This document shows, piece by piece, positions 45,467-63,140 of a stretch of 64,000 nt of DNA (positions are counted from its first letter, which is position 1; each line of letters opens with the position of its first letter). The notes beneath the pieces are model-generated. The model worked only from the letters and a program-made list of their open reading frames with translations, had not been told where the DNA came from and ran no database searches. The translations under genes and the position numbers were made by a program. The DNA is from Candidatus Parcubacteria bacterium (GTDB taxonomy: Bacteria > Patescibacteriota > Patescibacteriia > Buchananbacterales > SURF-54): positions 66,065-130,064 of the forward strand of contig QZIX01000009.1 of the NCBI GenBank assembly GCA_003599635.1. Direction: 5' to 3'.

Positions 45467-45469
45467 TTT

Positions 45470-47050
45470 ATGGCTAAAGATTTGAATATTAAAATTATAC
45501 AATTTTTTGTTTTGGCCGTTGTTTTAATCGGTGTATTCATTACAGTTTACAGTCCGCATTTATACTACGACTATTATTATCCCTTGCACTATGATGAGTG
45601 GCTGAATATAAGCGAAGCTAAAAAGATAAATAATGACGGTTTTTTTGAATCTGTTTTTTACCCTTACTTTAAACAAAAGATAGTCAGGATGAATCTGGTT
45701 TACGGTTTCGATATTTTTCTTGCCGTCTTAGAGTCAATATCCGGAAATCTGATTCCGGTTTATCAGTATCTTCCGGCGGCAACCGCGGTTTTAAACGCAA
45801 TAATTTTGTTTTGGCTGGCAAAAACAATTTCCAAAAGTTTTATCTTTTCGCTTACGGTCGTTATTTTTTTCGCTTTACTGCCAAGCAATATCAATATACT
45901 GGGAAACTGGTTTTTTTTACCGTCGACATTTTCATATTTTTTTGTTTCAGCCATCATTCTGTTTTTCAGCCGTTATTTGGCGGAAGAGGACGGAAAATAC
46001 TTTTTTTTGGCTGTAGTTTTTTTAACCGTTCTGTTCCTGGTTTACCCTCTTAATGCCGTTTTTCTGCTGCCTGTTCTGTACATTGCCTATATTTTGGCGG
46101 GAAAAAAATCACCGGCAAAACAGTTTAAATTATTTTCGTTGTTCGTTATTTCCCTTGTGCCTTTTTTATTATTATTTTTTGCCCTCGCCTTTAAAGTGGG
46201 CCTTCCGCATGAACAGCAGAGCGGGAATTTATTTTTAATTTTTAAAAATGCCATAGTCTACAACAGCCGTTCGCAGGGACTTTTGCTTAATGATTTATAT
46301 TTTATGCCGCCTTTTTTTTATTATGTGCTTATGGTTTTTTCCTCTGTCGCCATAGTGAAAAATTACAAAAACAAGATGTTTTATGTCTTGAATTTATTAT
46401 TTTTCTGGTCATTGGGCAACTTGCTGCTTTTCAAGATGTTTAATTTCACTCTTCTGTCATCCTATCACCGAATATTGTATCTGAGCTTTATAGTTTTTTG
46501 TCTGCTGGCGCCGTTGGGAATAAAAAATACGGTCGAACTGCCTGGCAAAATGAAAAAAAATATTTTTGCCGGAAAAATTTTGAAATTCATGGCTGCCGCG
46601 GCGTTTATATTTTACATTGTATCAAGCATGGGAAAAAATTTTTTTCCCTCCGATAACTTAAAGCCGGTTAAGTTGATTGATGCTAAAAATTCGGCCATGC
46701 TTGAATTTATTAAAGAAAATTATTCCAAAAGAGTGGTGCTTGCGCCTCAGCTTTTGTCCGTCGTCATTTATCCCCTGACCGCGAATTTCGCGGCTTCATT
46801 GGCCAATGTTCCGTTTTTTTCTCTTGAAAAAAGAGGGGATTACTTTTTCTCGGCAGAAAAGAGGATGTTTAATGATATAAACAACTATGATCCTTTTTCC
46901 GCTTTTCTGATGCAAAGCGACGAGTCAAGAAAAAAAATTTTGGAATTGTATGATTTTGATTTGGTCTATTCGCCCGGCAGAATTGATTCGCAGCTTCTGA
47001 ATCCAATATTTGCTCAAGACGGCCAGTTTGTTTACGAAGTAAAAAAATAA
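45470..47050 (+). CDS. GT-C-fold polytopic glycosyltransferase-like membrane protein (ArnT/PMT/GT39-like)
   Basis: More than 10 TM helices, an acidic HYDEW motif in the first extracytoplasmic loop, and a large C-terminal soluble domain. Confidence 0.5.
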   Translation: MAKDLNIKIIQFFVLAVVLIGVFITVYSPHLYYDYYYPLHYDEWLNISEAKKINNDGFFESVFYPYFKQKIVRMNLVYGFDIFLAVLESISGNLIPVYQYLPAATAVLNAIILFWLAKTISKSFIFSLTVVIFFALLPSNINILGNWFFLPSTFSYFFVSAIILFFSRYLAEEDGKYFFLAVVFLTVLFLVYPLNAVFLLPVLYIAYILAGKKSPAKQFKLFSLFVISLVPFLLLFFALAFKVGLPHEQQSGNLFLIFKNAIVYNSRSQGLLLNDLYFMPPFFYYVLMVFSSVAIVKNYKNKMFYVLNLLFFWSLGNLLLFKMFNFTLLSSYHRILYLSFIVFCLLAPLGIKNTVELPGKMKKNIFAGKILKFMAAAAFIFYIVSSMGKNFFPSDNLKPVKLIDAKNSAMLEFIKENYSKRVVLAPQLLSVVIYPLTANFAASLANVPFFSLEKRGDYFFSAEKRMFNDINNYDPFSAFLMQSDESRKKILELYDFDLVYSPGRIDSQLLNPIFAQDGQFVYEVKK

Positions 47051-47053
47051 TTT

Positions 47054-48250
47054 ATGCATTTACTTATAGTAACCCCTTATTTATATCCCCAGGGCAGCGG
47101 AGTCGGAAGGATATCATATTCTTTGGCCAGGGAACTAAGTAAAATCGGCCATCAAATTACTGTTTTTAGCACCGGGAAAAATTCAGACGTTGAAGAAAAC
47201 GGCATCCGCATCATAAAAAAGAAACCTTTTTTTCACTTCAGCAACACTCCTGTACGTCTGCGTTTGTTTTTCGACCTTGTTTTTTTGATTAAAAAAGGCA
47301 GATATGATTTTATTCTGGCTTTCACGCCAGTTCCTTATTATATGGACATGGCGTCATTGGCAGCCAGAATTTTATCCGTGCCGTTTTACGTTTCTTATAA
47401 TACCTATAGCTTTAAAAGAGAGCGGACGCTGCTTGATTTTATTACCTGGCTGTATTCCGCAATCGTTGAAAGATTTTCCTTGGGCTATGCCAGAAAGATT
47501 TTTATAAACAGTAAGAGGTTAAAACAGGCAGATATTCTACCGCAGTATAAAAATAAACTCGCTTACATAACTCCCGGAGTTGATCGCAGTCAGTTTCAGC
47601 CGACAAGCAGCCGTTCCGGTTCAGCCGGTTATATGTTATATGTTGGTCCTTTAAACAAAGGACAACGCTGGAAAGGGATAGATTATTTGATTTCCGCCAT
47701 GGTTAAAATAAAAAAAGAATATCCTGAAATAAAATTAAAAATTGCCGGTGGCGGCAATCTGCGGGCTTATTATCATAAAATTGTCAGGGCAGGCAAATTG
47801 GATGGCAATATAGAATTTGTCGGATTTTTGCAAAATGAAGATCTGGTAAAAATTTATCAGAATTGTCGTTTTCTGGTTTTGCCGTCTTACGGGAAAGCCG
47901 AACTTGTACCGACCGCCATTATTGAAGCTTTTGCCTGCGGTAAAACAGTAGTTTCAACATTTTCCGCCGGTATACCTTTTTTAGTGACAGATGGAACAGA
48001 CGGAAAATTAATTGAGCCAAAAAACATTGACCAATTGGCGAAAGCGATGGCAGAATTATGGATAAATGACAATTATCGCCGGAAACTTGAAGAGGGGGCG
48101 ATAAAAAAAACAAAGGAATTTTCCTGGACTAAAATGGCCGAAGATCTTCTGGCGCAGGTAAAACATAATATAACAACAGCCGAATTAAAACAATGTCAAT
48201 TGAAACAAAATTGCAAAAAATCCGATTTTTGGCAAACGCAAGAATTTTAG
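47054..48250 (+). CDS. Glycosyltransferase family 4 (GT-B fold)
   Basis: E-X7-E region AIIEAFACGKTVVSTFSAGIPFLVTDGTDGKLIEP. Confidence 0.8.
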   Translation: MHLLIVTPYLYPQGSGVGRISYSLARELSKIGHQITVFSTGKNSDVEENGIRIIKKKPFFHFSNTPVRLRLFFDLVFLIKKGRYDFILAFTPVPYYMDMASLAARILSVPFYVSYNTYSFKRERTLLDFITWLYSAIVERFSLGYARKIFINSKRLKQADILPQYKNKLAYITPGVDRSQFQPTSSRSGSAGYMLYVGPLNKGQRWKGIDYLISAMVKIKKEYPEIKLKIAGGGNLRAYYHKIVRAGKLDGNIEFVGFLQNEDLVKIYQNCRFLVLPSYGKAELVPTAIIEAFACGKTVVSTFSAGIPFLVTDGTDGKLIEPKNIDQLAKAMAELWINDNYRRKLEEGAIKKTKEFSWTKMAEDLLAQVKHNITTAELKQCQLKQNCKKSDFWQTQEF

Positions 48251-49236
48251 AATTCTTTAAGGCGGAGGAAAATAAATTAACCGCCGGATTAAACGCTGAG
48301 ATCAGAAATATAATGTCACAGCTGGAAAGGTTTTGTCTTGGCGGGAAAAAAATAAGAATAGCACTTGCTTATTTTTCCTATCTGGCCTGCGGGGGCAAAT
48401 CCAAAAAAAAGTTTTTCAGAACCGCGGTTTCTTTGGAATTATTTCATAATTTTTTTCTGATTCACGATGATATTATCGATAAAGATAATTACAGGAGAAA
48501 TAAACTGACTTTTCATAAATACTTCGGTGAAAAAAGAGGCGATTTGCACTATGGTCTGTCCCTGGCAATTATTGGTGCGGACCTGTTGAATTTTTTTGCT
48601 TACAAAAACTTAGATAATTCCAGATATCCGGAAAAGGTTAAAAATAATATCAGAAAACTTTTTTCTGTTTTTCTTTCCAGAGTTTGTTTAGGAGAATTTT
48701 TGGATATATATTTTGCTAAGGTTAAAAAGGTTAGCGCTAAAGAGCTGCTTTTCGGATACGACTGCAAGACGGGCGGCTATACTACGACTTTGCCTGTCGT
48801 TTTCGGCGCCCATTTGGCCGGGGCCAGTTACAGACAGATTAAGGAATTAACGGAATTTTCCGGACCTTTGGGGCAGGTTTTTCAGATAAAGGATGATATT
48901 CTGGACGTTTTCGGAAACAAAAGCAAATTCGGCAAGGATCCGGGTTCAGACCTTTTGAACGGAAAAAAAACAATTTTGCTGGATTTTGTAATGAAAAATG
49001 CCGATTGCCGGGAGAAAAAATATCTGAATTCTCTGGCAAATAAACGGAAGTTGTTATTTAAAGATATTTTTAAAATAAGAAAAATAATAAGAAAAAGCGG
49101 CGCCATAACCTATTTTGATAAATACACCGAAAATTTGGTCTTTAAAGCGAAAGCCAAAATCAACAAAAAAAATTTCAACCGTAACGTTTGTGATTTACTG
49201 GCTTTGGCAGATTATTTTTTAATAAGAAGTTCCTGA
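48193..49236 (+). CDS. Polyprenyl diphosphate synthase (trans-isoprenyl, short-chain type)
   Basis: First DDxxD motif LIHDDIID with aromatic residues at -4/-5, second motif FQIKDDILD. Confidence 0.75.
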   Translation: MSIETKLQKIRFLANARILEFFKAEENKLTAGLNAEIRNIMSQLERFCLGGKKIRIALAYFSYLACGGKSKKKFFRTAVSLELFHNFFLIHDDIIDKDNYRRNKLTFHKYFGEKRGDLHYGLSLAIIGADLLNFFAYKNLDNSRYPEKVKNNIRKLFSVFLSRVCLGEFLDIYFAKVKKVSAKELLFGYDCKTGGYTTTLPVVFGAHLAGASYRQIKELTEFSGPLGQVFQIKDDILDVFGNKSKFGKDPGSDLLNGKKTILLDFVMKNADCREKKYLNSLANKRKLLFKDIFKIRKIIRKSGAITYFDKYTENLVFKAKAKINKKNFNRNVCDLLALADYFLIRSS

Positions 49237-49237
49237 T

Positions 49238-50071
49238 ATGATAAGCGCAATAATTCCTTGCTTTAATTGTATCCGTTCCCTGGACAAGACAATTGCATCC
49301 CTTATGAAGGCAAATGTTAAGTTAGAAATTTTTATTATTGACGATGGATCCTCTGACGCTTCGGCTGATTTTGCCAGAAAAAAATATCCCGGCATAAAAC
49401 TTCTGATCAACGAAAAAAACAGAGGACGCGCATTTTCGCGCAACAGGGGAATGGCGGCTGCAGGAAATAATGTTATGTTATTTATCGATTCTGATGTCTG
49501 GCCGGGTAATGGTTGCCTGGAACAATTATATGAAAATATATCCGATAATGATATCGTTTATCCGAAACTGGCTTACGAGGATGGAGCCGTTAAACATCCC
49601 AAAGATGACAATAGCAGTTATCCTTATGATGCCGGCTGTTTTATGATAAAAATGCCGGACGGAAAAGACGTTAAATTTGATGAGAATTTTAAATATCTTG
49701 AAGACCAGGATTTTTTCATCAGATGTCATTTAAATAATTTTAAGGCAAAATATGTCAGGTCGGCCGTGGCTTTTCACTCTAACAGACAAACGACAAGCAG
49801 CGGCAGTGAAAAATTTTATCAGGAAATGTGCGATATTGTATATGGTATGAATAAATACCGCGGGAAAAAAATAAAACCGGTCCACAATTTCAGCCGAGTC
49901 AATCTGGTTAAAGGTCTGGTTGCAGCTATTTTCAATTATAACTATTTTTTTTACGGCCCCAGCGCTTCGGTATTAAAAAAAATCAGCCGGCTTTTTTTAA
50001 AACACAAAAAATTTGAAATTAGCAATTTCAAGATGTTGAGGCTGTATTTTAAGGCTTTGAAAAATTTATGA
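49238..50071 (+). CDS. Glycosyltransferase family 2 (polyprenyl-phosphate sugar synthase-like)
   Basis: IIPCFNCIRSLDKTIASL ... FIIDDGSSD ... DSD motifs of GT-A fold. Confidence 0.8.
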   Translation: MISAIIPCFNCIRSLDKTIASLMKANVKLEIFIIDDGSSDASADFARKKYPGIKLLINEKNRGRAFSRNRGMAAAGNNVMLFIDSDVWPGNGCLEQLYENISDNDIVYPKLAYEDGAVKHPKDDNSSYPYDAGCFMIKMPDGKDVKFDENFKYLEDQDFFIRCHLNNFKAKYVRSAVAFHSNRQTTSSGSEKFYQEMCDIVYGMNKYRGKKIKPVHNFSRVNLVKGLVAAIFNYNYFFYGPSASVLKKISRLFLKHKKFEISNFKMLRLYFKALKNL

Positions 50072-50841
50072 TAAAAATACTGGATTTTGCAAAATTGATA
50101 CGTTTTAACGAATGGCTGGACAAATTATGGCTGTTAATCATCTCTTTGGTTGTTTTGCTTATGGCCACCGGAAAAAATTTTTATTTTGAAGCTGTGGCTC
50201 AGGCTGCCTATCTTTTTTTTCTTCTGGCTTTCGGATTTTTGCTCAATTCAGTCTTTGAAAAGGATATTGACCTTGCCGTCGGCAAGAACCGGCATCTTGA
50301 TCTTTTTACGCCCGGACAGATAAAATTATTTATCCTTTCATTTTTACTGATCGTTTCGCTTTTGCCTTTGTTTTTTAATAACGGCTTGGCGCAGTTATAT
50401 AATTTAATGATGATAATTCTGGCTGTTTTTTATTCGATGCCGCCCCTTTATTTTAAAAACAAACCGGTTTTAGGCATTTTGGTTCCATCATTTCTGCAGG
50501 GGCCTTCAACACTGCTGTTTTTAAGCGTTAGTGACATAAATACTGTTTATCTGGGTCTTATTGGGGCAATAGTTCTGGCCGTTAACATCTATATGCAATT
50601 GATTCATCAGGTGAGAGACTTTGAAAACGACAAAAAAATGAATCTGAAAACTTTCGCCGTTTTTTTTGGTTCTGAAACGACCTATTTTATGATAAGATTG
50701 TTTATAATCATAGTGGTTTTTTTATTGCTGGCGATTTTTTTCCTGTTTGATGATTTTTTCTTTTCATTATTTGCCGTCCTGATCTACCTGATTTTTCTGA
50801 TCCCGTCTTTGGCCAGTCATTTTCAGCTTAAAAAATTATGA
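50068..50841 (+). CDS. UbiA-family prenyltransferase
   Basis: Seven or eight TM helices; Asp-rich motifs NSVFEKDIDLA (cf. NDxxDxxxD) and VRDFEND. Confidence 0.55.
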   Translation: MIKILDFAKLIRFNEWLDKLWLLIISLVVLLMATGKNFYFEAVAQAAYLFFLLAFGFLLNSVFEKDIDLAVGKNRHLDLFTPGQIKLFILSFLLIVSLLPLFFNNGLAQLYNLMMIILAVFYSMPPLYFKNKPVLGILVPSFLQGPSTLLFLSVSDINTVYLGLIGAIVLAVNIYMQLIHQVRDFENDKKMNLKTFAVFFGSETTYFMIRLFIIIVVFLLLAIFFLFDDFFFSLFAVLIYLIFLIPSLASHFQLKKL

Positions 50842-51866
50842 TCGTTAATTTTTTAAAAAATTTATTTGGCATAATTCACTATAACAACAAAATAGATTTT
50901 TTTATTTACAAAAAATTGCGTTCATATTTGCCGAAAAATCAATATCCCAGGCCGCCCAAATCTATAGCCATCGACCCTTGTTCGGTCTGCAATTTAAGTT
51001 GCCCTGCCTGCGTCGCCTGCAAATCCACTCCCGGCTTTGTTTCGGCTAAGCTGAGTTTTGACAAATTTAAATTAATGCTTGACAAAATGCCTTTCGCCAG
51101 GAAGTTGTTGTTGTGCAATTGGGGAGAGCCTTTTTTAAATGATGATATTTTTAAAATGATAAGGTATGCCAAGACAAAAAAATTGTATGTTTCTTTATAC
51201 AGCAATCTTAATATTAAAAAGAACGACTGTTTTTATACTGAGCTTGCGTTGTCGGGACTTGATGATCTTTTAATTTCCATTGACGGTATCACCCAGGAAA
51301 ATTATGAAAAATTCAGGGCCGGCGGGAATTTGTCGTTGGTTTTTGAAAATATAAAAAAAATAAATGCCGCCAAGGAAAAAAAATCATCCAGTCTGCCGAA
51401 ACTTTACTGGCATTTAACCATCAACAAATATAATGAAAAAGAAATTACTCAAGCCGCGGCCAAGGCCGAAGAACTGAAAATGCAGTTTATGCCCAACTAC
51501 ATTATTTTGTATCATCGGGTAATACCGATAGATGAATCTGAAATGGCCGAAAAAAACAGCTACTGGCTGCCGGCAAAAAATAAAAATTATTATCATTGGC
51601 AGAAAAACAAACCTTACCGGCTGGATTATCCCTGCCAGAATCTTTTTTTAACAGTTTTTTTTGATCCTGAAGGCAACTGCTTTCCCTGCCGTTATCTTTC
51701 CGATGTCAAAGATTCATTCGGCAATATTTTAAGAGAGGATTTTTTTGACATCTGGTACGGAAAAAAATTTCTTTCTGCCCGAAGTCTGTTTTTGAAGAAT
51801 AAAACATTGCCCGTCAATAAAGCTGCTACTATTTGTGACAGCTGCGTCATGCATAAAAAATATTGA
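50838..51866 (+). CDS. Radical SAM protein with C-terminal SPASM/twitch-like Cys cluster
   Basis: CNLSCPAC (Cx3Cx2C) near the N-terminus; C-terminal CQNLF...GNCFPCRYL...ICDSCVMH. Confidence 0.7.
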   Translation: MIVNFLKNLFGIIHYNNKIDFFIYKKLRSYLPKNQYPRPPKSIAIDPCSVCNLSCPACVACKSTPGFVSAKLSFDKFKLMLDKMPFARKLLLCNWGEPFLNDDIFKMIRYAKTKKLYVSLYSNLNIKKNDCFYTELALSGLDDLLISIDGITQENYEKFRAGGNLSLVFENIKKINAAKEKKSSSLPKLYWHLTINKYNEKEITQAAAKAEELKMQFMPNYIILYHRVIPIDESEMAEKNSYWLPAKNKNYYHWQKNKPYRLDYPCQNLFLTVFFDPEGNCFPCRYLSDVKDSFGNILREDFFDIWYGKKFLSARSLFLKNKTLPVNKAATICDSCVMHKKY

Positions 51867-51882
51867 ATTAATATATGGCATA

Positions 51883-53166
51883 ATGAATAAAAACAGCAGA
51901 AAATACAGGATTCTTCTGATAAATCCTTATCAGGACATGCGCAGCTGGATTATGTACAAGGAAAGGAATTTACTTTCCCTTTCTTTTACTACCAGAACGA
52001 TAAAAGCGATTACGCCGGATGATTTTGAAGTTAAGCTAATAGATCAATGTGTTGAAGATATTGATTTTGACGCAGATGTGGATTTAGTCGGCGTGACATC
52101 ACTGACACACAACTCTTATCGCGCTTATAAAGTTGCCGAAGAGTTTAAAAAAAGAAACAAGCCCGTGGTTATGGGGGGTTATCATGCGACTTTCCTTCCA
52201 GAGGAGGCGAAAAAATGCGTAGACAGCGTTGTTATTGGTGAAGCGGAAAATGTCTGGCCGGAACTGTTGAATGATTTTAAAAACGGCAAGTTAAAGGCTT
52301 TTTATAAAAGTAACCTGCCTGCGGAATTGCAGGGCCTGCCTATCGCTGCAAAAGAAAAATATTACGGGAGTAAATACGGGAGTTTTAGCATGCCTTATCC
52401 TATGCATGCTTCCAGGGGCTGCACCAACGGCTGTTCTTATTGTTCGATTAACCGCTTTTACAACCGTACAATAAGGTATCGCCCGATCATTGAAATAATT
52501 GATGAGATAAAAAAAACAGGGTATAAATTCATTGCTTTTATGGATGATAATTTAATTCTTGACGCCAAATATGCCAAAGAATTTTTTGCCGCTTTAAAGC
52601 CGTTGAATATAAAATGGACAATGCAAACTTCAATTCTGATTGCCGAGCATGAGGAGCTTTTAAAACTGGCTGCGGAAAGCGGGTGTTTCTGCTTTTACAT
52701 AGGAGTTGAAAGTATCAACCAGCTTAGCCTTGATTCAGTAGACAAAAAAATTAACCGGGCAGAAAAATTCCTCGCCGCTTTTAAAAAAATAAAAGAATAC
52801 GAAATTAGCATTGTACTTTTGATAATCTTCGGCTTTGACGGTGATACTAAAAGCGTTTTTAATCAGACTCTGGATTTTTTAAAGGAAGCCGGAGTTTTAA
52901 ATGCCGAATTCAGCATGCTGGTGCCTTTTCCCGGGACTTTGTTGTATAAAAAATTAAAAAAAGAAAATCGTATATTAAGTTATGACTGGAAAAATTACAA
53001 TCCCGGCTGGCATTGCGTCTTTCAGCCAAAAAATATGGAGCCGCATGAATTAGAAGCGGGTTTTAAAAAAGTTTTGATTAAATATAATACTCCCTTTTGG
53101 GTTTTAAAAAGGTTAATTGCCGGCGGTAAAAAAATTTTTTTAACAATGCCCGGATACTATTTATAA
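51883..53166 (+). CDS. B12-binding-domain radical SAM protein
   Basis: N-terminal Rossmann-like B12-binding region (RILLINPY...VVMGGYHATF) and rSAM motif CTNGCSYC; an alternative start at 51835 overlaps the preceding gene. Confidence 0.75.
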   Translation: MNKNSRKYRILLINPYQDMRSWIMYKERNLLSLSFTTRTIKAITPDDFEVKLIDQCVEDIDFDADVDLVGVTSLTHNSYRAYKVAEEFKKRNKPVVMGGYHATFLPEEAKKCVDSVVIGEAENVWPELLNDFKNGKLKAFYKSNLPAELQGLPIAAKEKYYGSKYGSFSMPYPMHASRGCTNGCSYCSINRFYNRTIRYRPIIEIIDEIKKTGYKFIAFMDDNLILDAKYAKEFFAALKPLNIKWTMQTSILIAEHEELLKLAAESGCFCFYIGVESINQLSLDSVDKKINRAEKFLAAFKKIKEYEISIVLLIIFGFDGDTKSVFNQTLDFLKEAGVLNAEFSMLVPFPGTLLYKKLKKENRILSYDWKNYNPGWHCVFQPKNMEPHELEAGFKKVLIKYNTPFWVLKRLIAGGKKIFLTMPGYYL

Positions 53167-53420: not shown

Positions 53421-56400
53421 TTGATGTTTTATAGTGAGCAAGACACAATGAAAATAAGGAAAACAAAAAGAAAATTTAAAAAAAGAGATTTTTTGATTTT
53501 AAGATCTGAAAAAAACCAAAGAAGAGAGCTAAACGACTTTTCGGGAAAAGAAAAGAACATAGACCATTTTTACACTAGAAATTCCCGCTTTACTTCCCCT
53601 TTGCCTCCGGCTAAATACGGATTCGGCCCTCTTTTAAGAAAATTGGAAAAGAAATTGATATTAAACCCTTACAGCGCGGTATTTTATTTTTTGTTAATTT
53701 TTGTACTGGTTCAGGGAACTTTCCCTGTTTTTTCTTTTCAATTCAAAAACAAGGTCTGGCAGACAGCTGCAGACTGGCAGGAATGGCAGGTTGATAATTT
53801 GTCAATTACTGAAAATGGTAATTTGGTTCTGGCTCAGTATGTTGAAGATGAGCCAGATATCGAAGTTTTATCTGAAAATAATGATATTGCCGGAGATATT
53901 CAAATTGAAGACGGTCAGATTTTTCCCTCGGGTGATGAATCCTTAGAAGATGATGAAACAGGCAGTATGGGAGAGCAAATTAGCGAGGATGAAGATAGCG
54001 CCGGTGATGATTTAGATGATGATCCAGGAGCCGAAACGGAAGATATTCTGTCCGATTTACAGCAGGAATCGCCGGACGAACAGAGTCCAGACGAAGAATC
54101 GCCGGACGAACAGGCTCCGGACGAGGAAATTACTCAAGACGAAGAAACCGCTCCGGACGAGGAAACTGTTCCTGATGAGGAATCTGATATACAAAACGGC
54201 CAGACCGATTATATTTTGGGCGAGTCTTCCGGCGACGGACTGACCGAGACCGAAAATGACGATATACAAAATAATCCGCTGCCTGATGATTTGGCAAACC
54301 AACCGGATGAAGCAGCTGATGATAATTCAGAGGAGATTCAGGATTTATCGCAAATAATGGATGATTTATCAGTGGAAAAAAATGATACGCCAGAAGATGA
54401 TTCTGAATCCGAAAACTCCGCCGGAGATATTTCAGAAATTATCGAAGACGGAGTAGGTGGCCCTGAAATTTCTCTGGACTACGACGATGAAATTTTAGTG
54501 GAGCCGCCCAAACAACCGGCGCAATTATATCAGATTCAGGGTTCGGCTCAAATCTATTACGAACCGGAGCAGGGAATAAATCAGGTCTGGAAAGATTATA
54601 AGGCAAAAATAAAAGGTTCAGACGAAGAAAACCGGGTGGATTTTACCTTTTCTGCCGACAATGTTTTTTACACCCAGGATATGTCGCAACTGCCCGTCAG
54701 TCCGGGAATTTACATCAGGGCGAATTTTTTTGGCACCGGCCAAAAAACACCTTTATTAGGTTCGTTTAAAATTTTTTATCGGGATGAAAATTCAGACGAA
54801 GCACCCGCTGAAGAAAATCTTAATTTAACCGGCCAGGAAAAAAAGAAGTTTGACCGTTTCAGTTCAAAAAAATTAAATAATGTCCAGCTGTCGCCGGAAA
54901 AAAAGCAGCAAAGAAAGGCAAAACTGACTAATAAAAAAGTCGCTCCGGAAGAAGTAATTGAAAAACGAAACCTGTTTTCCCGTTCTTTTGCCGTCAAGCA
55001 GGGCAGCAGAAAGTTCAATAAAGGAAAGGTAAAAACCAAGCTGAATGATTCCAGTTTCAGAACGGAAATTTTCCGCTACCCGGTTAATTATCAGGATGAA
55101 GAAGGCGCCTGGCAGATAATTGAAAACGATTTTGAACAAATTGACCTAAAAGATTTGGACGGAAAACTAGATTCTGGGCAGGAACAAGATTCTGATTCCC
55201 AGACAGATTCAAATTCAGAAAGCAGCCAGAATAATGACAATGATTCCGAAACGGCAAACGAAAGTGAAGAAAATGCCGAGTCGGAAGCGGATTTTATTTT
55301 TGCCACGCTTGACAACAACTGGCAGACCTTTTTTCCCAATCTTGCCTCACAACCTCACCGCATACAGTATCAGGACAGGATAATCGAATACAGGATAGTC
55401 GGCGCTGATCAAAATTCCGTCGCCCGGGTTGAAAGCAATAAAATAACTTATCCGGAAGTTTTTGAAAATGTTGACTTTGTTTATACAATCGACAATGAAA
55501 GAGTCAAGGAAGATATCATAGTCAAATCTCCTGTAGAGCTGGATATTTCATATCAGATGAATGTTGCCAACGTTTATTTTGTCAGGGCAGAAGACGGCAG
55601 CATAAATTTTTACGACCAAACCACCGATGATAAGATATTTTCTCTGCAAAAGCCGTATGTTACCGATTTTATCGGCCAGAAAGCTGACCTGGATTTAGAA
55701 GTGGAAAAGGCGGGAGAAAACAGCTACCTGATAAGGTTGTTAAATACGACCGGCGTTGAACTTGATGACCCCCGAATTGTCTATCCGATAATTATCGACC
55801 CGACAACAACGATTTATGCTGCCGGAACCAATATTTATGTTGACGGTGACGTTTGGACAAATGGTACCGGATCTTATACGTATTTTGATGTCACATTAGC
55901 CGCTGCCAGATCGGGATTTTATGGAACTAATCAGTACCGTTCTTTTTTTGATTTTGATACATCGGGAATTGACGATGACGTTACGATTACTGATGTTGTT
56001 TTAAAAGTCTATGTCGCTGCAACGGCCGGAGGCACACTATCTGTCAATGCCATGGCTCAACAGGTAGGTTTCACTTCGTCAACTCCAGTAGTAGTTTATA
56101 CTGATGCCGGTGACGGCACAGTCTATTACACCGGCACACCCACAGCGTCGGCTTATAATAATCTGGACCTGGGAACCACGGCTGATTCTGACCTGCAAAC
56201 CAACCTTGCCAGTAATTGGTTTGGAGTCGGCGCAACAACGACTACCGGTTTGACCAGTATAAACACCAGCGGTATGGCCAGCAATAAGCCCTATCTTGAC
56301 GTTGCCTGGACTTATACTGATTGCGTTGATTTAACTATCGGCGAAGACACATCTTTGGCAGAAGATTTAACCTGTACCGGCACTATAACCGTAAACAACG

Positions 56401-59400
56401 GCGCCACTCTGACCGTTTCCGGCGCCAGAACCATAACTGCTAATGCCTTAACGCTTGACAACGGCGACATAACTAACAGCGGCTCAGGCGAACAGTCAAC
56501 TACAACCCTGGCAATCACCAGTGCCATTACCTTGTCCAATAGTTCTGATATAACCTCCAATTTAAATGTTACGGCGGCAACTCTGACTTTAAATTCAGGC
56601 ACGACAATTTCAGCCAATTCCAAGGGTTACCCTTCCAATACTGGGCCCGGAACCAGGGGTACTGGCGCGGGCGGCGGTTACGGCGGCAAGGGCGGAGCCA
56701 CGGGATCAGCTACCGCAGGCAGCATGTGGGGAAAATCCTCTGATCCGGAAAATTTAGGTTCAGGCGGCGGCCTGGGATCGGCAGGTCTTCTCGGTGGAGT
56801 CGGAGGCGGTTTGATTATTATGGATATTTCGGGAACTTTTACTTTATCGGGAACTGTTTCCGCCAATGGTGGTAATGGCGCAACTTTCGGCAGTGCAACC
56901 GGCGGCGGCGGCGGTTCTGGCGGCGGCATAAATATTACAGCCGGCACCTTGGAAGGCGATGGAACAATTACCGCCAACGGCGGCAATGGCGGAGCCAGCA
57001 CAAATTTTGCCGGCAGCGGCGGCGGCGGCGGCAGAATTTTTGTAAATTATGACACTTCAACTTTTAGTAATGAAACCGGCGCCACGACAAACGGCGGGAC
57101 AGGCGGCGGCGGCGGCGGTACTAACGGCAGCACGGGCGAAGACGGCACAATCGGCTTTTTTGATGCAACTAGTAACGACATTAACATTTACGAGGGCTGG
57201 CAGTGGCAGGAAGGCGAGGACCTTGATTTCAGGAATGTCACAATCGCCAACGCGCCAAAAATAAGGACTACATCGACAGCCGATATTACTTTGACCGGTA
57301 ATCTGACAGTTTCCACTTCCACCTGGGAAATTTATTCCGGCCTTTATCCCGAAATTAAAGCCGATAATTTAAGAATAAATAACAGCGACATAACCAATAA
57401 CGGCACGGGTGAAAAATCCACAACCACTTTAAATATTACCAATGATATTACTATTTCCACTAATTCCACCACCACTTCCAATTTGGATATTACCGCCGCT
57501 TCCATGACCATTGAAGACACGGTACATCTTATTGCTGATGGTCTGGGTTACAATTCCGAAGCAGGATTAGGTGCCGGCACATCAGGTAGCGGCGGCGGTT
57601 ATGGCGCAGCTGGCGGCGCATCTGGTGACGGTGACGCCGGAGGCACTACTTACGGAGAAGCAGCTACCCCGACATTTTTGGGTTCCGGTGGCAGTAATGG
57701 CACTGTTTTAGGCGGTTACGGAGGCGGAGGCGGCGGCATGATTTATATTAAGGTGACTGGTAGTTTTATTCATAACGGAACAATTAGCAGCAAAGGCAAT
57801 GATGGCACAGCTTCAACAGCCGATGGCGGAGGAGGCGGTTCGGGAGGCACAGTCTTTATAAAAACCGGCGATACAATGTTGGGAGCCGGCAATATTTTTG
57901 CCAGAGGCGGTTCGGGAGGAAGCAGCAGCGGCGCCCAGGGCGGAGGCGGCGGAGGCGGCGGGCGCATTGCCACCCGTCAGTGTACTAACAGTTTTACCGG
58001 CACCAAATCCGCAACCGGCGGGGCGGGCGGCAGTCCTTCGGGCGTAGCCGGTTCAGATGCCGATGTCAACAATAACGATACTTTCTGTCCGCCCTCAAGC
58101 AATTTTAATTCTGCCTCGCAAAAATCAGACGGTTCCGGGGATGCTGATTTGTCTTTTACGGTTGATGATCAGGACGATTCTAACGTCAAAATGAAAATTG
58201 AATATACTTCAGACGCCAATTGTGAAACCGGCTGGTCAGACCCTACTTTAGTCGGTCCTGTAAGCGTCGCTTACGGCTCTGCGCCGGATTTGGACAATGG
58301 CAACGCCTATCAGGTAGGAACTGTAACCGGCGTATCAACAAGTTCGGGCGTCAATGATCCGGTGCAGTTTGACTGGGATTCTGATACAGATTTGCCGGCC
58401 GGCAATGTCACATATTGCCTGCGCGTTACCGGAAATGACGGCACTGACGACCAGATAAGACCGAGTACCATAACCTTAACCGTCGACAACGTAAATCCGA
58501 CTGTTAGCAGTCTGGCAATATCCACTCCGGCAGCGGCCGATTACAACGACGGCGTTGATGACTGGTATGACCAGGGACAATACGCCCAGATGGCGTTTAC
58601 TTCAACGCCGGCTGATACGAATTTGTCATCCTGCGACTGGACCTGGAACCACAGCGACGGCACAAGCTATGACTATTCGGACACCAACGTTGAAATCGGC
58701 ACGGACGGCGATATTACCACCGCCAATATGTCTGACGGCGTCATTGACCTTTCCGATGACACCGACGGCACGGTCACTTTAACCGTTACCTGTTCGGACA
58801 GTTACGGCAATTCCGGCAACAGTAATATCTCCTTCAAGTTTGACAATACTTCAGCTTCCGGGCTTGCCGACCTTGCTGTTAATGCCATTGACGATACCAC
58901 TGCTACCCTGGGCTGGACAGCTGCGTCCAGTGTCAGCAATTTCGATCATTATGAAATCTGGTACGGCACCAATGAAACCGATGTTGCCAACAGAAACGGC
59001 ACGGCCGCCGAATGGGACAATGACGATGACGGTAATTTAACCACTATTTCCACGACTTCCACGACCATAACCGGACTGACCACAGGACAAACTTATTACT
59101 TTAAAATCTGGGCCGCTGATGAGGCTAGTTTAAATAATGAGGCAACTGCCACGGGAACTTCCGGATATACGTCAAGCAATACTGCTCCCACAGGCGTTTT
59201 TACCGTCAGCTCCTTGCCAACACAAAAAACAGACGGCTCGGGCTATGTTGACATTTCCATAACAGTTGATGATGCCGATGACAATGATACCATGGCCAAA
59301 ATTGAATATGACACTGACGGCACCTGCGACGGCCCCTGGCTTGACCCGACTATTTTAGGTTTGGCAACAGCCACTTATTCTGATTCAGGCGGCGTGCCTG

Positions 59401-62400
59401 ATGTAAATAATGCTAATGACTATCAGATAGGCACCACAGCCAGTACAAGAATAATCACATCATCCGGAGCCAATACTGTTACGTTTGACTGGGATTCAAA
59501 AACTGACCAGGCATCTGCTGACGGCACTTACTGTTTACGGCTGACAGTTAACGACGATACCGCAGATCAGGCAGTACCCGCAACTCAAACAGTTACAGTT
59601 GACAATGTCAATCCAACTGTCAGCAGCCTTGCTATATCCACTCCCGCTGCTGCGGATTATAACGACGGCGCTGATGACTGGTATGACCAGGGCGACTATG
59701 CCCAGATGGCTTTTTCTTCAACGCCGGCTGACACCAATCTTTCTTCCTGCGATTGGACATGGAACCACAGTGACGGTGCCAGTTACGATTACTCGGATAC
59801 CAACTTTGAAATCGGGACAGACGGCGATATTTCTGCGGCTAATATGGTTTCCGGCGGCATAGATTTGTCGGATGACGCTGACGGCACGGTAACTTTGACT
59901 GTGACTTGCGCTGACGCTTATGGCAATTCCGGCAATACCAATATTTCCTTTAAGTTTGACAATACGGCGCCGACAGGTTTAGCCGGGCTGGCAGCCGCAG
60001 CCGACGGCGACACTGCTGTTGACTTGACCTGGACTGCTGCGGCGGAAAGTAACTTTGGCCATTATGAAATCTGGTATGGCACAAATCAAAGCGACGTTAA
60101 CGGCAGGTCGGGAACAGCAACGGAGTGGGATAATTCCGACGATGCCGCATTGGCAACTGCGGCCACTGTTACGACAAATATTTCCGGCCTTAATAATTCC
60201 TCAACCTATTATTTTAAAATATGGGCTGTTGATGATTTAGTAAATGAAGCCACTTTGGATTCAATAAGTTTTGCCTTTTCGGTTTGCGGCGATGGCGTGG
60301 CTGAAGGATCTGAACAATGCGATGCCAGCGACCTTAACAGCCAAAGTTGTGAGACTCTGGGGCAGGGATTTATAGGAGGCACCTTAGCCTGTTCGGGTTC
60401 GTGCACCTATGATACTACTGGTTGTACCAGTTCACAGGGGTGTACTACCTGCGGTAACGACGACAACGATGATGACACTGCTTTTGTCATAAGCAGCGTG
60501 GAGGTAGGGCAAATAACTGGCAGCTCGGCCCAAATTTCGTGGCTGACGAATATAGACTCTGATTCTTATGTTTACTACGGTTTGACGCCGGCTTATGAAT
60601 TAGGTTTTTATTATATAAACGAGCTGACGCAAAATCATTCAGTAACACTTGGCGATTTACAGCCAACTACGACATATTACTACAAAGTTTATTCAGTGGC
60701 CGGGAGCGATTCTGACGAATCAAACGGATCTGTTTTTGCCACTGCCCAATGTTCAGCAGGTGAACATTTAATCTGCGGCCAGACCGAAGTCGGCTTATGC
60801 ACATTCGGCTGGCGTGACTGCGTGAGCGGTTACTGGGGGGAATGCAGCGCTGTTTTACCCGCTGCTGAAATCTGCGGCAGCGGAGAGGATGAAGATTGCG
60901 ACGGTTTTATTGATCTGGATGACAGCGATTGTGCTTGCATTTCAGGCACAATTGAAACTTGCGGTGAAACTGATATCGGCTTGTGCGAATTCGGGCAAAG
61001 AACCTGCCAGGACGGCCAGTGGGGGGAATGCAGCGCTGTTTTACCCGCTGCTGAAATCTGCGGCAACGGAGAGGATGAAGATTGCGACGGCCTTTCTGAC
61101 GAAGGCTGCCCTGTCTGTGTACCCGGTAGCTTGCAGGAGTGTGGGTTAACGGATGTTGGCGAATGCGCCATGGGCATAAGGTATTGCGGTGAAGATGGTA
61201 TCTGGGGTCTTGATTGCGTTAACGCTGTTTACCCTGTTCCTGAAGTCTGCGATGATTTTAAAGATAATGATTGTGACGGTTTTATAGATATTGAAGATGA
61301 TGAATGCGAGGTTTGCAGTCCTGGCAGTATAACTGAATGTGGAACTGATATTGGCATCTGTAGGCAAGGCGAAAGGACCTGCCAGGAAAACGGTGTTTGG
61401 GGTGTTTGTTACGGTGCCATTTATCCTGCTGAAGAAGTCTGTAATGATGAGATGGATAATGATTGCGACGGGGACACGGATGAAAATTGCTGCCAGCCGG
61501 TCTGGCAGTGTTATGACTGGTCGGAATGTAAAGACAATCGGCAGGTCAGGATCTGTATTGACATAAATAGCTGTGGAGTTTCCGAAGGCATGCCGGAAAC
61601 AATCAGAGACTGCGATGTTTGCACCCCCAACTGGACCTGCGGCTGGTCCGGCGAATGCATCGGCGGTGTGGAAGATTTGGTTTGCGTTGATTTAAACGAA
61701 TGCAATAAGCAGGAAGAAGCGCCTGTGGACCACCGTGCCTGCAGCGTCTGCGGCGACGGCACCTGCGAATTGGAAGAAACTTACGATAATTGCAACATAG
61801 ACTGTCCCCAGCAGGAATGTAAAATTTCCTGCCCAAACTCGTGCTACACTGTTGATGCCGGAGAATGTACCTGCATAGTCCAAAGTGCCTGCTGCGGTAA
61901 TCTGGTGTGCGAAGAAAACGAAAATTATAATACCTGCCCGGATGACTGCACTGTAAAGCAAAAAGAGTGCGGCGATGGCATTGACAATGATAATGACGGA
62001 AGGATTGATTTTCCCGAAGATGAGGGGTGTTCAGATGACAAGGATGGCAGCGAGGCCAGCTTTAAAGAGATGATTTTAAATGCCGGTGATAAATCCAAAG
62101 ATTTAATTGGTTTTTCCGGCGCTATTTTAAACGCTGCTAAAAATGCCTTAAAGCCTGTTCAAAATTTTACAGATAATCCTGAAGTGGAAAAAGTGTCAGA
62201 ACGAGTGGTTGCACCCGCGGCCGTGGCCTTGGGCAGCGCTGCTGCCATGTCAGCTGTGAATTTCACCAGCGTATTGGCTTATCTCCAGTATGTCATAACC
62301 CAGCCCTTTTATCTGTTTGCCAGAAGGCGCCGCAAAAAATGGGGGGTGGTTTATAATTCAGTAACAAAAAAACCTGTTGATTTGGCGATTGTCCGCCTTT

Positions 62401-63140
62401 ACGACAGAACCAGCAACCGTTTGATACGGTCAAGGGTAACTGACAAAGAAGGACGGTATAATTTTCTTATTCCGCCCGGTTATTATTACCTGACAATTAC
62501 CAAACCCGATCATATTTATCCTTCAGCCGTTTTAAGGCAAAAAAAACAGGATATGCAGTATCTTGATATTTATCACGGCGAAGTAATAGATGTTATAGAC
62601 AAGGATGTTTTGATAACGGCAAATGTGCCGATTGACCCGGTCAGCGCCGTTGAAACTCCCAAAGAAGTCATCCGCAAAAGAAGGATTAAGAAATTACAGT
62701 CCGGTCTGGCATTCGGGTCAGTACCTTTGTCATTGATTCCGCTGATGATAATTCCGTCGTCGACAACACTGACTCTGTTCGGAGTTCAATCAGCCCTTTT
62801 CTTACTTTTCAGGAAACTGGCTGTAGCCGCCAAACCCAAGGGCTGGGGGATTGTCTATGATCTACATTCAAAATCTCCCCTGAAAAACGCGGTTATGAGA
62901 ATTTTTGACAAAAAGTACAACAAGCTTTTAGAAACGCAGGTGACAGACAACCGCGGCCGTTACAGTTTTTTGACCACAGGCGAAGATTATTATATAGTGG
63001 CCGAAAAAGACGGGTATAATAAATTCCAAACCGATATTCCGGCAATAAAAGAAACCGGTCAGGGAAAAATTCAGGAGTCAGAAAAAGTTGTCAGTCTTGA
63101 TATCGGGCTGGAAAAACAGCCGGGTCAGGATGTTTCTTAG
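53421..63140 (+). CDS. Giant multidomain cell-surface protein (3,239 aa)
   Basis: Continuous ORF; N-terminal TM anchor, acidic SPDE/PDEE repeat linker, two Gly-rich beta-helix-like modules, two ~370-aa tandem repeats ending in an FN3-like YYFKIWA motif (Ig-like/FN3 fold inferred), a Myxococcus-type Cys-rich repeat, four MopE-like CDG...D.DC repeats, Cys-rich modules, two C-terminal TM segments each followed by a CarboxypepD_reg/transthyretin-like domain. Confidence 0.85.
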   Translation: MMFYSEQDTMKIRKTKRKFKKRDFLILRSEKNQRRELNDFSGKEKNIDHFYTRNSRFTSPLPPAKYGFGPLLRKLEKKLILNPYSAVFYFLLIFVLVQGTFPVFSFQFKNKVWQTAADWQEWQVDNLSITENGNLVLAQYVEDEPDIEVLSENNDIAGDIQIEDGQIFPSGDESLEDDETGSMGEQISEDEDSAGDDLDDDPGAETEDILSDLQQESPDEQSPDEESPDEQAPDEEITQDEETAPDEETVPDEESDIQNGQTDYILGESSGDGLTETENDDIQNNPLPDDLANQPDEAADDNSEEIQDLSQIMDDLSVEKNDTPEDDSESENSAGDISEIIEDGVGGPEISLDYDDEILVEPPKQPAQLYQIQGSAQIYYEPEQGINQVWKDYKAKIKGSDEENRVDFTFSADNVFYTQDMSQLPVSPGIYIRANFFGTGQKTPLLGSFKIFYRDENSDEAPAEENLNLTGQEKKKFDRFSSKKLNNVQLSPEKKQQRKAKLTNKKVAPEEVIEKRNLFSRSFAVKQGSRKFNKGKVKTKLNDSSFRTEIFRYPVNYQDEEGAWQIIENDFEQIDLKDLDGKLDSGQEQDSDSQTDSNSESSQNNDNDSETANESEENAESEADFIFATLDNNWQTFFPNLASQPHRIQYQDRIIEYRIVGADQNSVARVESNKITYPEVFENVDFVYTIDNERVKEDIIVKSPVELDISYQMNVANVYFVRAEDGSINFYDQTTDDKIFSLQKPYVTDFIGQKADLDLEVEKAGENSYLIRLLNTTGVELDDPRIVYPIIIDPTTTIYAAGTNIYVDGDVWTNGTGSYTYFDVTLAAARSGFYGTNQYRSFFDFDTSGIDDDVTITDVVLKVYVAATAGGTLSVNAMAQQVGFTSSTPVVVYTDAGDGTVYYTGTPTASAYNNLDLGTTADSDLQTNLASNWFGVGATTTTGLTSINTSGMASNKPYLDVAWTYTDCVDLTIGEDTSLAEDLTCTGTITVNNGATLTVSGARTITANALTLDNGDITNSGSGEQSTTTLAITSAITLSNSSDITSNLNVTAATLTLNSGTTISANSKGYPSNTGPGTRGTGAGGGYGGKGGATGSATAGSMWGKSSDPENLGSGGGLGSAGLLGGVGGGLIIMDISGTFTLSGTVSANGGNGATFGSATGGGGGSGGGINITAGTLEGDGTITANGGNGGASTNFAGSGGGGGRIFVNYDTSTFSNETGATTNGGTGGGGGGTNGSTGEDGTIGFFDATSNDINIYEGWQWQEGEDLDFRNVTIANAPKIRTTSTADITLTGNLTVSTSTWEIYSGLYPEIKADNLRINNSDITNNGTGEKSTTTLNITNDITISTNSTTTSNLDITAASMTIEDTVHLIADGLGYNSEAGLGAGTSGSGGGYGAAGGASGDGDAGGTTYGEAATPTFLGSGGSNGTVLGGYGGGGGGMIYIKVTGSFIHNGTISSKGNDGTASTADGGGGGSGGTVFIKTGDTMLGAGNIFARGGSGGSSSGAQGGGGGGGGRIATRQCTNSFTGTKSATGGAGGSPSGVAGSDADVNNNDTFCPPSSNFNSASQKSDGSGDADLSFTVDDQDDSNVKMKIEYTSDANCETGWSDPTLVGPVSVAYGSAPDLDNGNAYQVGTVTGVSTSSGVNDPVQFDWDSDTDLPAGNVTYCLRVTGNDGTDDQIRPSTITLTVDNVNPTVSSLAISTPAAADYNDGVDDWYDQGQYAQMAFTSTPADTNLSSCDWTWNHSDGTSYDYSDTNVEIGTDGDITTANMSDGVIDLSDDTDGTVTLTVTCSDSYGNSGNSNISFKFDNTSASGLADLAVNAIDDTTATLGWTAASSVSNFDHYEIWYGTNETDVANRNGTAAEWDNDDDGNLTTISTTSTTITGLTTGQTYYFKIWAADEASLNNEATATGTSGYTSSNTAPTGVFTVSSLPTQKTDGSGYVDISITVDDADDNDTMAKIEYDTDGTCDGPWLDPTILGLATATYSDSGGVPDVNNANDYQIGTTASTRIITSSGANTVTFDWDSKTDQASADGTYCLRLTVNDDTADQAVPATQTVTVDNVNPTVSSLAISTPAAADYNDGADDWYDQGDYAQMAFSSTPADTNLSSCDWTWNHSDGASYDYSDTNFEIGTDGDISAANMVSGGIDLSDDADGTVTLTVTCADAYGNSGNTNISFKFDNTAPTGLAGLAAAADGDTAVDLTWTAAAESNFGHYEIWYGTNQSDVNGRSGTATEWDNSDDAALATAATVTTNISGLNNSSTYYFKIWAVDDLVNEATLDSISFAFSVCGDGVAEGSEQCDASDLNSQSCETLGQGFIGGTLACSGSCTYDTTGCTSSQGCTTCGNDDNDDDTAFVISSVEVGQITGSSAQISWLTNIDSDSYVYYGLTPAYELGFYYINELTQNHSVTLGDLQPTTTYYYKVYSVAGSDSDESNGSVFATAQCSAGEHLICGQTEVGLCTFGWRDCVSGYWGECSAVLPAAEICGSGEDEDCDGFIDLDDSDCACISGTIETCGETDIGLCEFGQRTCQDGQWGECSAVLPAAEICGNGEDEDCDGLSDEGCPVCVPGSLQECGLTDVGECAMGIRYCGEDGIWGLDCVNAVYPVPEVCDDFKDNDCDGFIDIEDDECEVCSPGSITECGTDIGICRQGERTCQENGVWGVCYGAIYPAEEVCNDEMDNDCDGDTDENCCQPVWQCYDWSECKDNRQVRICIDINSCGVSEGMPETIRDCDVCTPNWTCGWSGECIGGVEDLVCVDLNECNKQEEAPVDHRACSVCGDGTCELEETYDNCNIDCPQQECKISCPNSCYTVDAGECTCIVQSACCGNLVCEENENYNTCPDDCTVKQKECGDGIDNDNDGRIDFPEDEGCSDDKDGSEASFKEMILNAGDKSKDLIGFSGAILNAAKNALKPVQNFTDNPEVEKVSERVVAPAAVALGSAAAMSAVNFTSVLAYLQYVITQPFYLFARRRRKKWGVVYNSVTKKPVDLAIVRLYDRTSNRLIRSRVTDKEGRYNFLIPPGYYYLTITKPDHIYPSAVLRQKKQDMQYLDIYHGEVIDVIDKDVLITANVPIDPVSAVETPKEVIRKRRIKKLQSGLAFGSVPLSLIPLMIIPSSTTLTLFGVQSALFLLFRKLAVAAKPKGWGIVYDLHSKSPLKNAVMRIFDKKYNKLLETQVTDNRGRYSFLTTGEDYYIVAEKDGYNKFQTDIPAIKETGQGKIQESEKVVSLDIGLEKQPGQDVS
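54060..54190 (+). repeat. Tandem acidic coding repeats (ESPDEQSPDEESPDEQAPDEE...)
   Basis: GAATCGCCGGACGAACAG-like units repeated head to tail. Confidence 0.6.
58090..60250 (+). repeat. Two tandem coding repeats of about 1.1 kb inside the giant gene (each ends in an FN3-like motif)
   Basis: 58486-58720 and 59596-59830 are about 85% identical; the protein segments NVNPTVSSLAISTPAAADYNDG...YYFKIWA are duplicated. Confidence 0.8.

Follow-up and report, generated by a model that had tools for sequence, protein, structure and literature searches.

A giant modular, probably adhesin-like surface protein from a Candidatus Parcubacteria bacterium and its conserved C-terminal membrane cassette

Bacteria in the Candidate Phyla Radiation (CPR), or Patescibacteria, are believed to rely on contact with other cells, and we know of almost nothing on their surface proteins and the anchoring of these, type IV pili apart. 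We analysed 64,000 nucleotides of a Candidatus Parcubacteria bacterium (assembly GCA_003599635.1, contig QZIX01000009.1, positions 66,065 to 130,064; hereafter the window), in which one gene encodes a giant protein. Its product is, with a probability of roughly 60%, an exported adhesin-like surface protein built from a head, a stalk and an anchor. A basic tail and a hydrophobic segment would direct export, the segment then staying as an N-terminal anchor or being cleaved, and a disordered acidic tether of about 240 amino acids (aa) would follow. The head would consist of a lineage-specific domain, a DUF7948-like and DNRLRE-like pair and two Gly-rich beta-solenoids; the stalk, of two sandwich-sandwich-fibronectin type III (FN3) modules, an 8-Cys repeat, a third FN3, four MopE-type repeats and further Cys-rich modules. 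At the C-terminus, a cassette made of two units, in both of which a helix pair is followed by a sandwich, would hold the protein in the cytoplasmic membrane. Since its folds are mostly of known kinds and the head-stalk-anchor plan is a familiar one, the protein itself comes as no surprise; it provides a well-resolved case of a giant modular surface protein in this group, and the cassette family and the uncurated Gly-rich solenoid are the more interesting by-products.

The open reading frame (ORF) lies on the forward strand (+), as do all features of the giant gene given below, and extends without interruption from a TTG at 53421 to 63140 (3,239 codons); aa numbers are counted from this TTG throughout. 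Two in-frame ATGs are present, at 53424 and 53448. The second is probably the start of the gene: the product then has 3,230 aa (344 kDa, pI 4.05), in agreement with the length of the NCBI record, C4569_01860, a hypothetical protein from a Candidatus Parcubacteria metagenome-assembled genome (MAG). The gene is real and intact, and it is already deposited but unannotated. Its frame is well beyond chance expectation for DNA of about 40% GC, and none of the frameshifts that had been raised as a possibility in an earlier note on this DNA was found across its 9.7 kb. GC content at third codon positions (GC3) is within the range of the neighbouring genes. A foreign origin of the GC-rich middle of the gene was considered and rejected, the rise in GC being located at second codon positions (GC2), that is, in amino acid composition. 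Promoter and terminator scans gave no signal above shuffled expectation.

The whole architecture is shared by only two other proteins. One is P0002 of locus L001 (JGI 3300033153, Ga0366824_1036152), which is collinear with the window protein; the other is an intact ORF of 3,860 aa at locus L007, found in a metagenome scan with a profile of the big modules described below. Two scans of species-representative genome contigs yielded no orthologue, and only one distant Firmicute match.

At the N-terminus, a basic tail predicted to be cytoplasmic (53448..53648, aa 10-76; 20 Lys and Arg versus 7 Asp and Glu, net charge +13) precedes a hydrophobic segment (53649..53747, aa 77-109; Kyte-Doolittle (KD) value 2.2), which ends in FPVFS|F and is followed by a stretch of net charge -8. 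Because the tail is strongly positive and the stretch beyond the segment negative, an orientation with the N-terminus inside and the body outside is favoured. The segment and its juxtamembrane stretch are 46-57% identical to those of the orthologues; both orthologues have basic tails of similar character, and the tail itself is not alignable. All three proteins keep FP(V/A)(F/L)S at the end of the segment, a plausible signal-peptidase site, and the segment could be a signal-anchor or, alternatively, a signal peptide that is cleaved. Thus, where a transmembrane (TM) anchor had been placed near residue 90, a strong hydrophobic segment is indeed found, but a lasting anchor is only one of two options. 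The basic region before the segment is unusually long (55-76 aa in the window protein, P0002 and the L007 ORF) and contains a common FY.R.S.(F/H)T motif; together with the segment it may form an extended signal peptide, by analogy with other giant secreted proteins. No type IV pilin class III signal (G-F-T-L-x-E) is present in the first 110 aa.

Next comes an acidic low-complexity linker (53748..54455, aa 110-345; 36% Asp and Glu, 1% Lys and Arg). It opens with a conserved KVWQ..DWQEWQ..NL motif, and is 25% identical to L007 only, with no match in L001. The acidic linker of about 250 aa in the earlier note is confirmed as such, but the tandem SPDE/PDEE repeat described across the whole of it is limited to a PDE[EQ] tract at aa ~217-250 (DNA 54066-54182).

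At the other end, no LPXTG-type motif (LP.T[GASN], NP.T[GN] or [SP]P.TG) is present in the whole protein, so that the only candidate C-terminal anchor is the cassette, which spans aa 2871-3239 and forms a unit of about 340 aa. The CGDGIDNDNDGRIDFPEDEGC motif (C.DG.DND.DG..D.P.D..C, aa 2850-2870) and a predicted amphipathic helix constitute its entry (61968..62177, aa 2850-2919). Helix pair A/B, then RRRRKKW (62178..62342, aa 2920-2974), lead to a first transthyretin-like/CarboxypepD_reg sandwich (62343..62639, aa 2975-3073; 64-76% identity to the orthologues). A basic stretch, the hydrophobic helix pair C/D and a second basic stretch (62640..62846, aa 3074-3142) lead to a second sandwich of the same type (62847..63137, aa 3143-3239). 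CarboxypepD_reg (PF13620) was detected in two stretches with 50.1 bits, for a cutoff of 32.3. In an AlphaFold2 (AF2) model built from 48 sequences, with a predicted local distance difference test (pLDDT) score of 82.9, the cassette appears as a duplicated unit of helix pair and beta-sandwich. The sandwiches have pLDDT values above 90, and the helices occupy aa 2920-2945 and 2948-2968 before sandwich 1, and aa 3080-3110 and 3114-3134 before sandwich 2. Helix A is moderately hydrophobic, and helix B is amphipathic, with a conserved polar YLQ.LFTQP motif and a mean KD of 0.94. Foldseek related the sandwiches to the transthyretin-like domain of carboxypeptidase D (target TM-score, TMt, 0.81), CnaB, SdrD-B and SpaA, and found no solved structure resembling the whole unit. 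Of the two TM helix-plus-sandwich units that the earlier note had placed here, the sandwiches were recovered but the single helices were not, as a helix pair precedes each sandwich in the model.

The cassette is a conserved, undescribed, membrane-anchoring element shared by thousands of proteins, of which those with a named source are almost all from Patescibacteria. A HMMER scan of 1.84 billion representatives returned 2,809 cassette clusters at E<=1e-30, and the giant protein itself matches the family profile with 468 bits (E 3e-135, residues 2879-3227 of 3230). Close relatives number 83, with 35-51% identity over 85-98% of the length; where source-named, almost all are from Patescibacteria. 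The family consensus reads: an NP.V..AP helix, a YLQ.LFTQP helix, RRKRK.WGVVY, sandwich 1, a hydrophobic helix pair, PK.WGIVYD and sandwich 2. Among 217 family proteins examined, the match extends to the C-terminal end of the cassette in 213, about 170 of which stop within 30 aa beyond it. Neither Pfam nor NCBIfam scans turned up a curated model that describes the cassette, and the library searched yielded no paper on it in Patescibacteria. Once the cassette is defined, the surface proteomes of Patescibacteria genomes could be listed by a plain sequence criterion.

Family members range from 334 to 3,595 aa, typically about 1,100 aa, and their usual architecture is a signal peptide, FN3 domains and the cassette. 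A clear signal peptide or TM segment is present at the start of 99 of 134 members. The closest named counterparts of the giant protein in this respect are the "carboxypeptidase regulatory-like domain-containing" proteins of Patescibacteria, for instance from Buchananbacteria, Uhrbacteria and Falkowbacteria MAGs, which end in the same cassette; in many of them, FN3, MopE and Cys-rich modules and the C.DG.DND.DG motif are also present just upstream of it. They differ in their size of typically about 1,100 aa and their simple FN3 ectodomains, and none has the N-terminal 2,280 aa of the giant protein. Fourteen of the 83 close relatives, of about 520-580 aa, start with a class III signal of the type IV pilin type (GFTLxE, PF07963): P0032, P0037, P0044, P0045, P0048, P0051, P0052, P0056, P0058, P0059, P0062, P0063, P0070 and P0071. 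A pilin-type start combined with a membrane cassette at the end does not seem compatible with incorporation into a pilus fibre. P0071, with its context in L002:8001-9674, is located beside PAP2, YceG/MltG and DUF2207 genes, not pilus machinery. Stand-alone cassette proteins devoid of a signal peptide were discarded as a clue to topology, for at least P0019 and P0018 look like C-terminal pieces of larger split genes.

Between the acidic linker and the first solenoid, the putative head begins with a conserved domain of unknown fold (54456..54830, aa 346-470), which has no Pfam match and is common only to the two orthologues (30-40% identity between orthologues). A charged linker, basic then acidic (54831..55280, aa 471-620), separates it from a DUF7948-like domain (55281..55820, aa 621-800; Pfam PF25778, 23.7 bits versus a cutoff of 27). 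In the orthologous region of L007 the same model scored 31.3 bits, over this cutoff. A DNRLRE-like domain follows (55821..56318, aa 801-966). It matches NF033679 at E 2e-5 and over model positions 12-163 of 164, and is called "like" because its 24.5 bits are below the cutoff of 34. The same succession, DUF7948-like then DNRLRE-type domains near the N-terminus, is found in Gram-positive RHS/YD (WapA-like) proteins, such as one of 1,988 aa from Croceifilum oryzae DSM 46876 (L006). However, the giant protein has neither RHS/YD repeats nor a toxin tip, the identity to the C. oryzae protein over aa 621-800 is only 24%, and the DNRLRE match is below cutoff. The list of modules given in the earlier note mostly holds; it had omitted these 620 or so residues (aa 346-966), the third FN3 (aa 2346-2443) and the C.DG.DND.DG..D.P.D..C motif (aa 2850-2870).

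The head would end with two Gly-rich beta-solenoid modules (module 1, 56319..57215, aa 967-1265; module 2, 57216..58070, aa 1266-1550), which are 43-46% identical to each other and contain 24-25% Gly. An AF2 model of module 1, obtained with a 30-sequence alignment, was confident and all-beta (pLDDT 84.8, predicted TM-score (pTM) 0.82), with a strand period of about 36-38 aa and ordered Gly-rich arcs between the strands. Foldseek gave no significant match in the PDB (best E 0.35, TM-score at most 0.24), and the weak matches were all beta-helices: Awp1, tapirins, FHA/EtpA, autotransporter passengers, bactofilin, tailspikes and pectate lyases. Two homologous Gly-rich modules of the beta-helix class had been foreseen from the letters alone, and both the homology and the fold class were borne out; their length is about 290 aa, not about 250 aa. 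The elongated beta-solenoid fold class is the one known from beta-helical passengers (FHA/TpsA secretion domains, EtpA, tapirins, Candida Awp1, autotransporters), from which the modules differ in having coils of about 37 aa with long ordered Gly-rich arcs.

This Gly-rich solenoid is widespread across many phyla, with neither a Pfam family nor a solved relative. A profile made from five copies retrieved 290 homologues from very different phyla, archaea included, almost none of them Pfam-annotated; a scan of 30 diverse homologues found no Pfam family, and a PDB sequence search with the profile found no relative. The N-terminal domain of Myxococcus AgmC (NF047640, gliding_AgmC_N) was the only curated model to detect the solenoid, weakly in 11 of the 30 homologues and in module 2 of the giant protein, at 26.4-26.7 bits against an equivalog-domain cutoff of 275. 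This makes it a distant domain relative and not an AgmC equivalog. No paper on AgmC was found in the library searched.

In the stalk, big module 1 (58071..59168, aa 1551-1916) is composed of two 2-Cys subdomains of about 125 aa, which we infer to be beta-sandwiches, and an FN3 domain; big module 2 (59169..60281, aa 1917-2287) is organised in the same way. The two are 55-75% identical in aa and 71-73% in nucleotides. Titin FN3 was the only match of a big module in a PDB sequence search. Over the whole protein, fn3 (PF00041) scored 51.3 bits in three stretches, for a cutoff of 25, and Pur_ac_phosph_N (PF16656) 45 bits, for a cutoff of 30; module by module, the three FN3 scored 29.9, 26.3 and 34.8 bits. 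Pfam fn3 thus lies over cutoff in each of the two modules of about 370 aa that had been described as ending in FN3. The third FN3, of the Pur_ac_phosph_N type (60456..60749, aa 2346-2443; 34.8 bits versus a cutoff of 30), is common to many cassette-family proteins. It comes after an 8-Cys repeat starting with CGDG..E.CD (60282..60455, aa 2288-2345). The likeness of this repeat to Myxococcus-type Cys-rich repeats, put forward earlier, proved faint: DUF4215 (PF13948) reached 13.6 bits against a cutoff of 27 (E=0.085), on the first half of the repeat only, and the NCBIfam scan of the repeat gave no match.

Beyond the third FN3, four repeats of 59-66 aa, with 8 Cys each (60750..61490, aa 2444-2690), carry the MopE-type acidic motif as their second half. 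When this segment was scanned alone, Cu-binding_MopE (PF11617) was detected in four stretches with 50.6 bits (cutoff 27; 19.7 bits in the whole-protein scan), in line with the four MopE-like repeats recognised from the letters alone. Judging from their D-rich loops between paired Cys, they probably bind divalent cations. The further Cys-rich modules, also reported earlier, form five units (61491..61967, aa 2691-2849): two of 43 aa with C.P.W.C..WS.C, two with CGDG/CGN..CE....C..DC, and one other. These have no Pfam family, and are shared with some cassette-family proteins.

All 80 Cys of the protein are found within aa 968-2870, and this confinement, together with the charge pattern, fits a large ectodomain between membrane-embedded ends. 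The earlier picture of a mosaic, exported, membrane-associated protein with adhesin-type folds is supported. Gram-positive modular adhesins (MSCRAMM/SdrD type, SpaA-type pilins, and giant adhesins, Embp being one) follow the same logic of export signal, distal binding region, sandwich stalk and C-terminal anchor, and the head is most likely the ligand-binding part. Unlike them, the giant protein has no LPXTG, a helix-pair-plus-sandwich anchor, a Gly-solenoid head and a disulfide-rich stalk.

On which side of the membrane the two sandwiches would reside can be approached from the charges of the family. Across the family, net charge goes from about -1 before helix A to +5.0 past helix B; it is about +3 before and into helix C, and the stretch beyond helix D has +3.7. 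By the positive-inside rule, the topology that we favour would place both sandwiches in the cytoplasm: helix A would cross the membrane from outside to inside, the amphipathic helix B would lie on the inner face, and helices C and D would form an in-out-in hairpin. In the alternative, four passes would leave both sandwiches outside and about 12 positive charges per protein on the outer face.

About 40 of the 213 proteins with a complete cassette extend past sandwich 2 by disordered tails of 80-250 aa, rich in Pro, Glu and Lys and free of Cys and TM segments (P0210, P0221, P0256, P0287, P0009, P0231, P0239, P0240, P0289 and others). PWELQ.LQK and GVGRESLEEL recur in them, and their extreme C-terminus is conserved as ...(S/N)IFG or ...KFG, which by its sequence looks like a docking peptide. 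We tentatively consider, as a possibility of clearly less than even odds, that the cassette is a transmembrane coupling device, abundant in Patescibacteria, whose cytoplasmic sandwiches and tails would link very diverse surface proteins, the giant protein and the pilin-headed ones among them, to a conserved cytoplasmic partner, much as integrin-type receptors join ectodomains to intracellular machinery. The topology of the cassette would tell whether Patescibacteria couple surface proteins to cytoplasmic partners.

Several points weigh against an anchored adhesin with cytoplasmic sandwiches. Pairs A/B and C/D are alike as helix pairs in the AF2 model, and the cassette resembles an internal duplication; if A/B were a true two-pass hairpin, the sandwiches would lie outside the cell. 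Sandwiches of the transthyretin/CnaB type are usually extracellular, and extra copies of them are found in the ectodomains of cassette-family members. The tails suit either side of the membrane and could equally span the cell wall. As to the head, the DUF7948-like, DNRLRE-like and AgmC_N matches in the giant protein are all under curated cutoffs, and adhesion is argued from fold types only.

The earlier note went further, and saw a doubly anchored loop protein (TM-out-TM) belonging to a dedicated attachment organelle in an episymbiont. We regard this as unlikely. Adhesin-like folds are indeed present, and a hydrophobic segment with a basic tail and a shared FY.R.S.(F/H)T motif is conserved in the three orthologues; membrane segments at both ends also recur in the family, in the 14 cassette proteins with a type IV pilin-like N-terminal helix. 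But the conserved signal-peptidase-like site after the segment and the ordinary signal peptides of most family members argue against a retained N-terminal anchor, and two single TM helices do not describe the C-terminal region, which is more complex. The organelle itself found no support: no pilus, secretion or organelle genes were found near the gene in the window, and no data point bears on an organelle or on episymbiosis in the source organism, the lifestyle of the MAG having only been assumed.

A second alternative is that the protein is a structural component of the envelope, S-layer-like or a wall-spanning scaffold, and not an adhesin. The cassette would then be a tether of CPR envelope proteins, with both sandwiches outside, in the wall zone. 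The very large and conserved family with its repetitive FN3 ectodomains speaks for it, as do the likeness of the sandwiches to stalk domains known from Gram-positive wall proteins (CnaB/SdrD-B), that of the Pro/Glu/Lys-rich tails to wall- or periplasm-spanning linkers, and the envelope-biosynthesis genes adjoining the giant gene and likewise P0071. However, some +12 net charges per protein on the outer face would be contrary to the positive-inside rule, heads with beta-solenoid and DNRLRE domains are characteristic of binding proteins, and the full-length form is rare (two orthologues, none in species-representative genomes), unlike a core envelope component. We regard the structural role as quite improbable, and retain the adhesin-like reading.

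The three orthologues differ in the number of their repeated modules. Counts of Gly-rich and big modules are 2 and 2 in the window protein, 3 and 1 in L001, and 2 and 3 in L007, so that module number changed repeatedly in evolution. Self-BLAST with 200-aa pieces was used to find the internal repeats of the giant protein. At the nucleotide level, the copies in the window gene are 71-73% identical, and at most 88% over 96 nucleotides; with repeats so diverged, the assembly is not at risk of collapse, and collapse or recent recombination was discarded. The internal duplications had been placed correctly at 56300-58000 and 58090-60250 and proposed as hotspots of length variation. Such variation does exist between orthologues, but the repeats are old and are no present-day hotspots of recombination or assembly collapse.

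Conservation between the three orthologues is highest in the cassette (62-76% identity) and amounts to 30-55% elsewhere, with 45-55% for the solenoids, the big modules and the DUF7948-like domain. The N-terminal two-thirds are shared as a whole with the two orthologues only; many other Patescibacteria proteins have the membrane-proximal third, which comprises FN3, MopE repeats, Cys-rich modules and cassette. The pairing of the solenoid with sandwich and FN3 units, and the DUF7948-to-DNRLRE arrangement, recur in other proteins; the label "mosaic" given earlier to the architecture is therefore accurate.

In L001 (7700-10120), the P0002 gene call ends after one MopE repeat, and two frame slips are present inside the MopE array; beyond them, the sequence continues through the Cys-rich modules and the cassette. 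The slips are due to an assembly error in these repeats, or else the gene is a true pseudogene. That the window gene is itself a chimeric or collapsed ORF assembled from metagenome repeats, as its MAG source, its internal repeats and this broken orthologue might suggest, is hardly credible given a frame open over 9.7 kb, repeats as diverged as stated, GC3 values in the range of neighbouring genes, and a matching collinear architecture in L001 and in the independent, intact L007 ORF.

Many giant ORFs on metagenome contigs of up to 1.2 Mb have 2-6 copies of the Gly-solenoid and repeated units of sandwich and FN3, with no cassette. Among these are L015 (6,436 aa), L032 (5,785 aa), L058 (4,975 aa), L023, L051, L072/L074, L056/L057, L022, L021, L019 and L076. 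The host contigs are probably mostly not CPR. Several of these proteins (L015, L032, L058, L023, L072/L074, L056, L022 and others) resemble the window protein in having 2-3 Gly-solenoids with repeated units that are related to subdomain a of the big modules plus FN3, but they have neither the cassette nor the middle subdomain (b), and no DUF7948/DNRLRE head. The combination of Gly-solenoid with sandwich and FN3 appears to be a recurrent design of giant proteins across phyla.

The window is otherwise ordinary chromosome, with genes for pyrimidine biosynthesis, thyA, gyrB, gatB, MacB-type ABC transporters and a cluster of hrcA-grpE-hsp20 ... dnaK-dnaJ. Look-ups by exact sequence of proteins encoded in the window returned no record. 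Directly upstream of the giant gene is a block of glycosyltransferase (GT), prenyl and radical SAM genes: GT4/GT1, polyprenyl synthetase, GT2 and UbiA prenyltransferase genes (47054-50841), then two radical SAM genes (50838-53166), one of the SPASM type and one of the B12-binding type. Both radical SAM genes are also present upstream of the L007 orthologue (L007:3-2160), with 51-53% identity. This block may be a cluster for a lipid or an envelope glycan. A tRNA-Glu comes after the giant gene.

A near-complete gene set for de novo pyrimidine synthesis occupies 2648-13911 and 21740-22612 (carA, carB, aspartate/ornithine carbamoyltransferase, amidohydrolase, a dihydroorotate dehydrogenase B pair, OMP decarboxylase and thymidylate synthase), which deserves mention because nucleotide biosynthesis is reported to be absent from many CPR genomes. 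Between dnaJ and the glycosyltransferase block, two adjoining ORFs of 194 and 526 aa (44882-47050) have no Pfam match at E<=1e-3. On the opposite strand (-), positions 17852-20200 encode a DUF3160 protein of 781 aa (272 bits).

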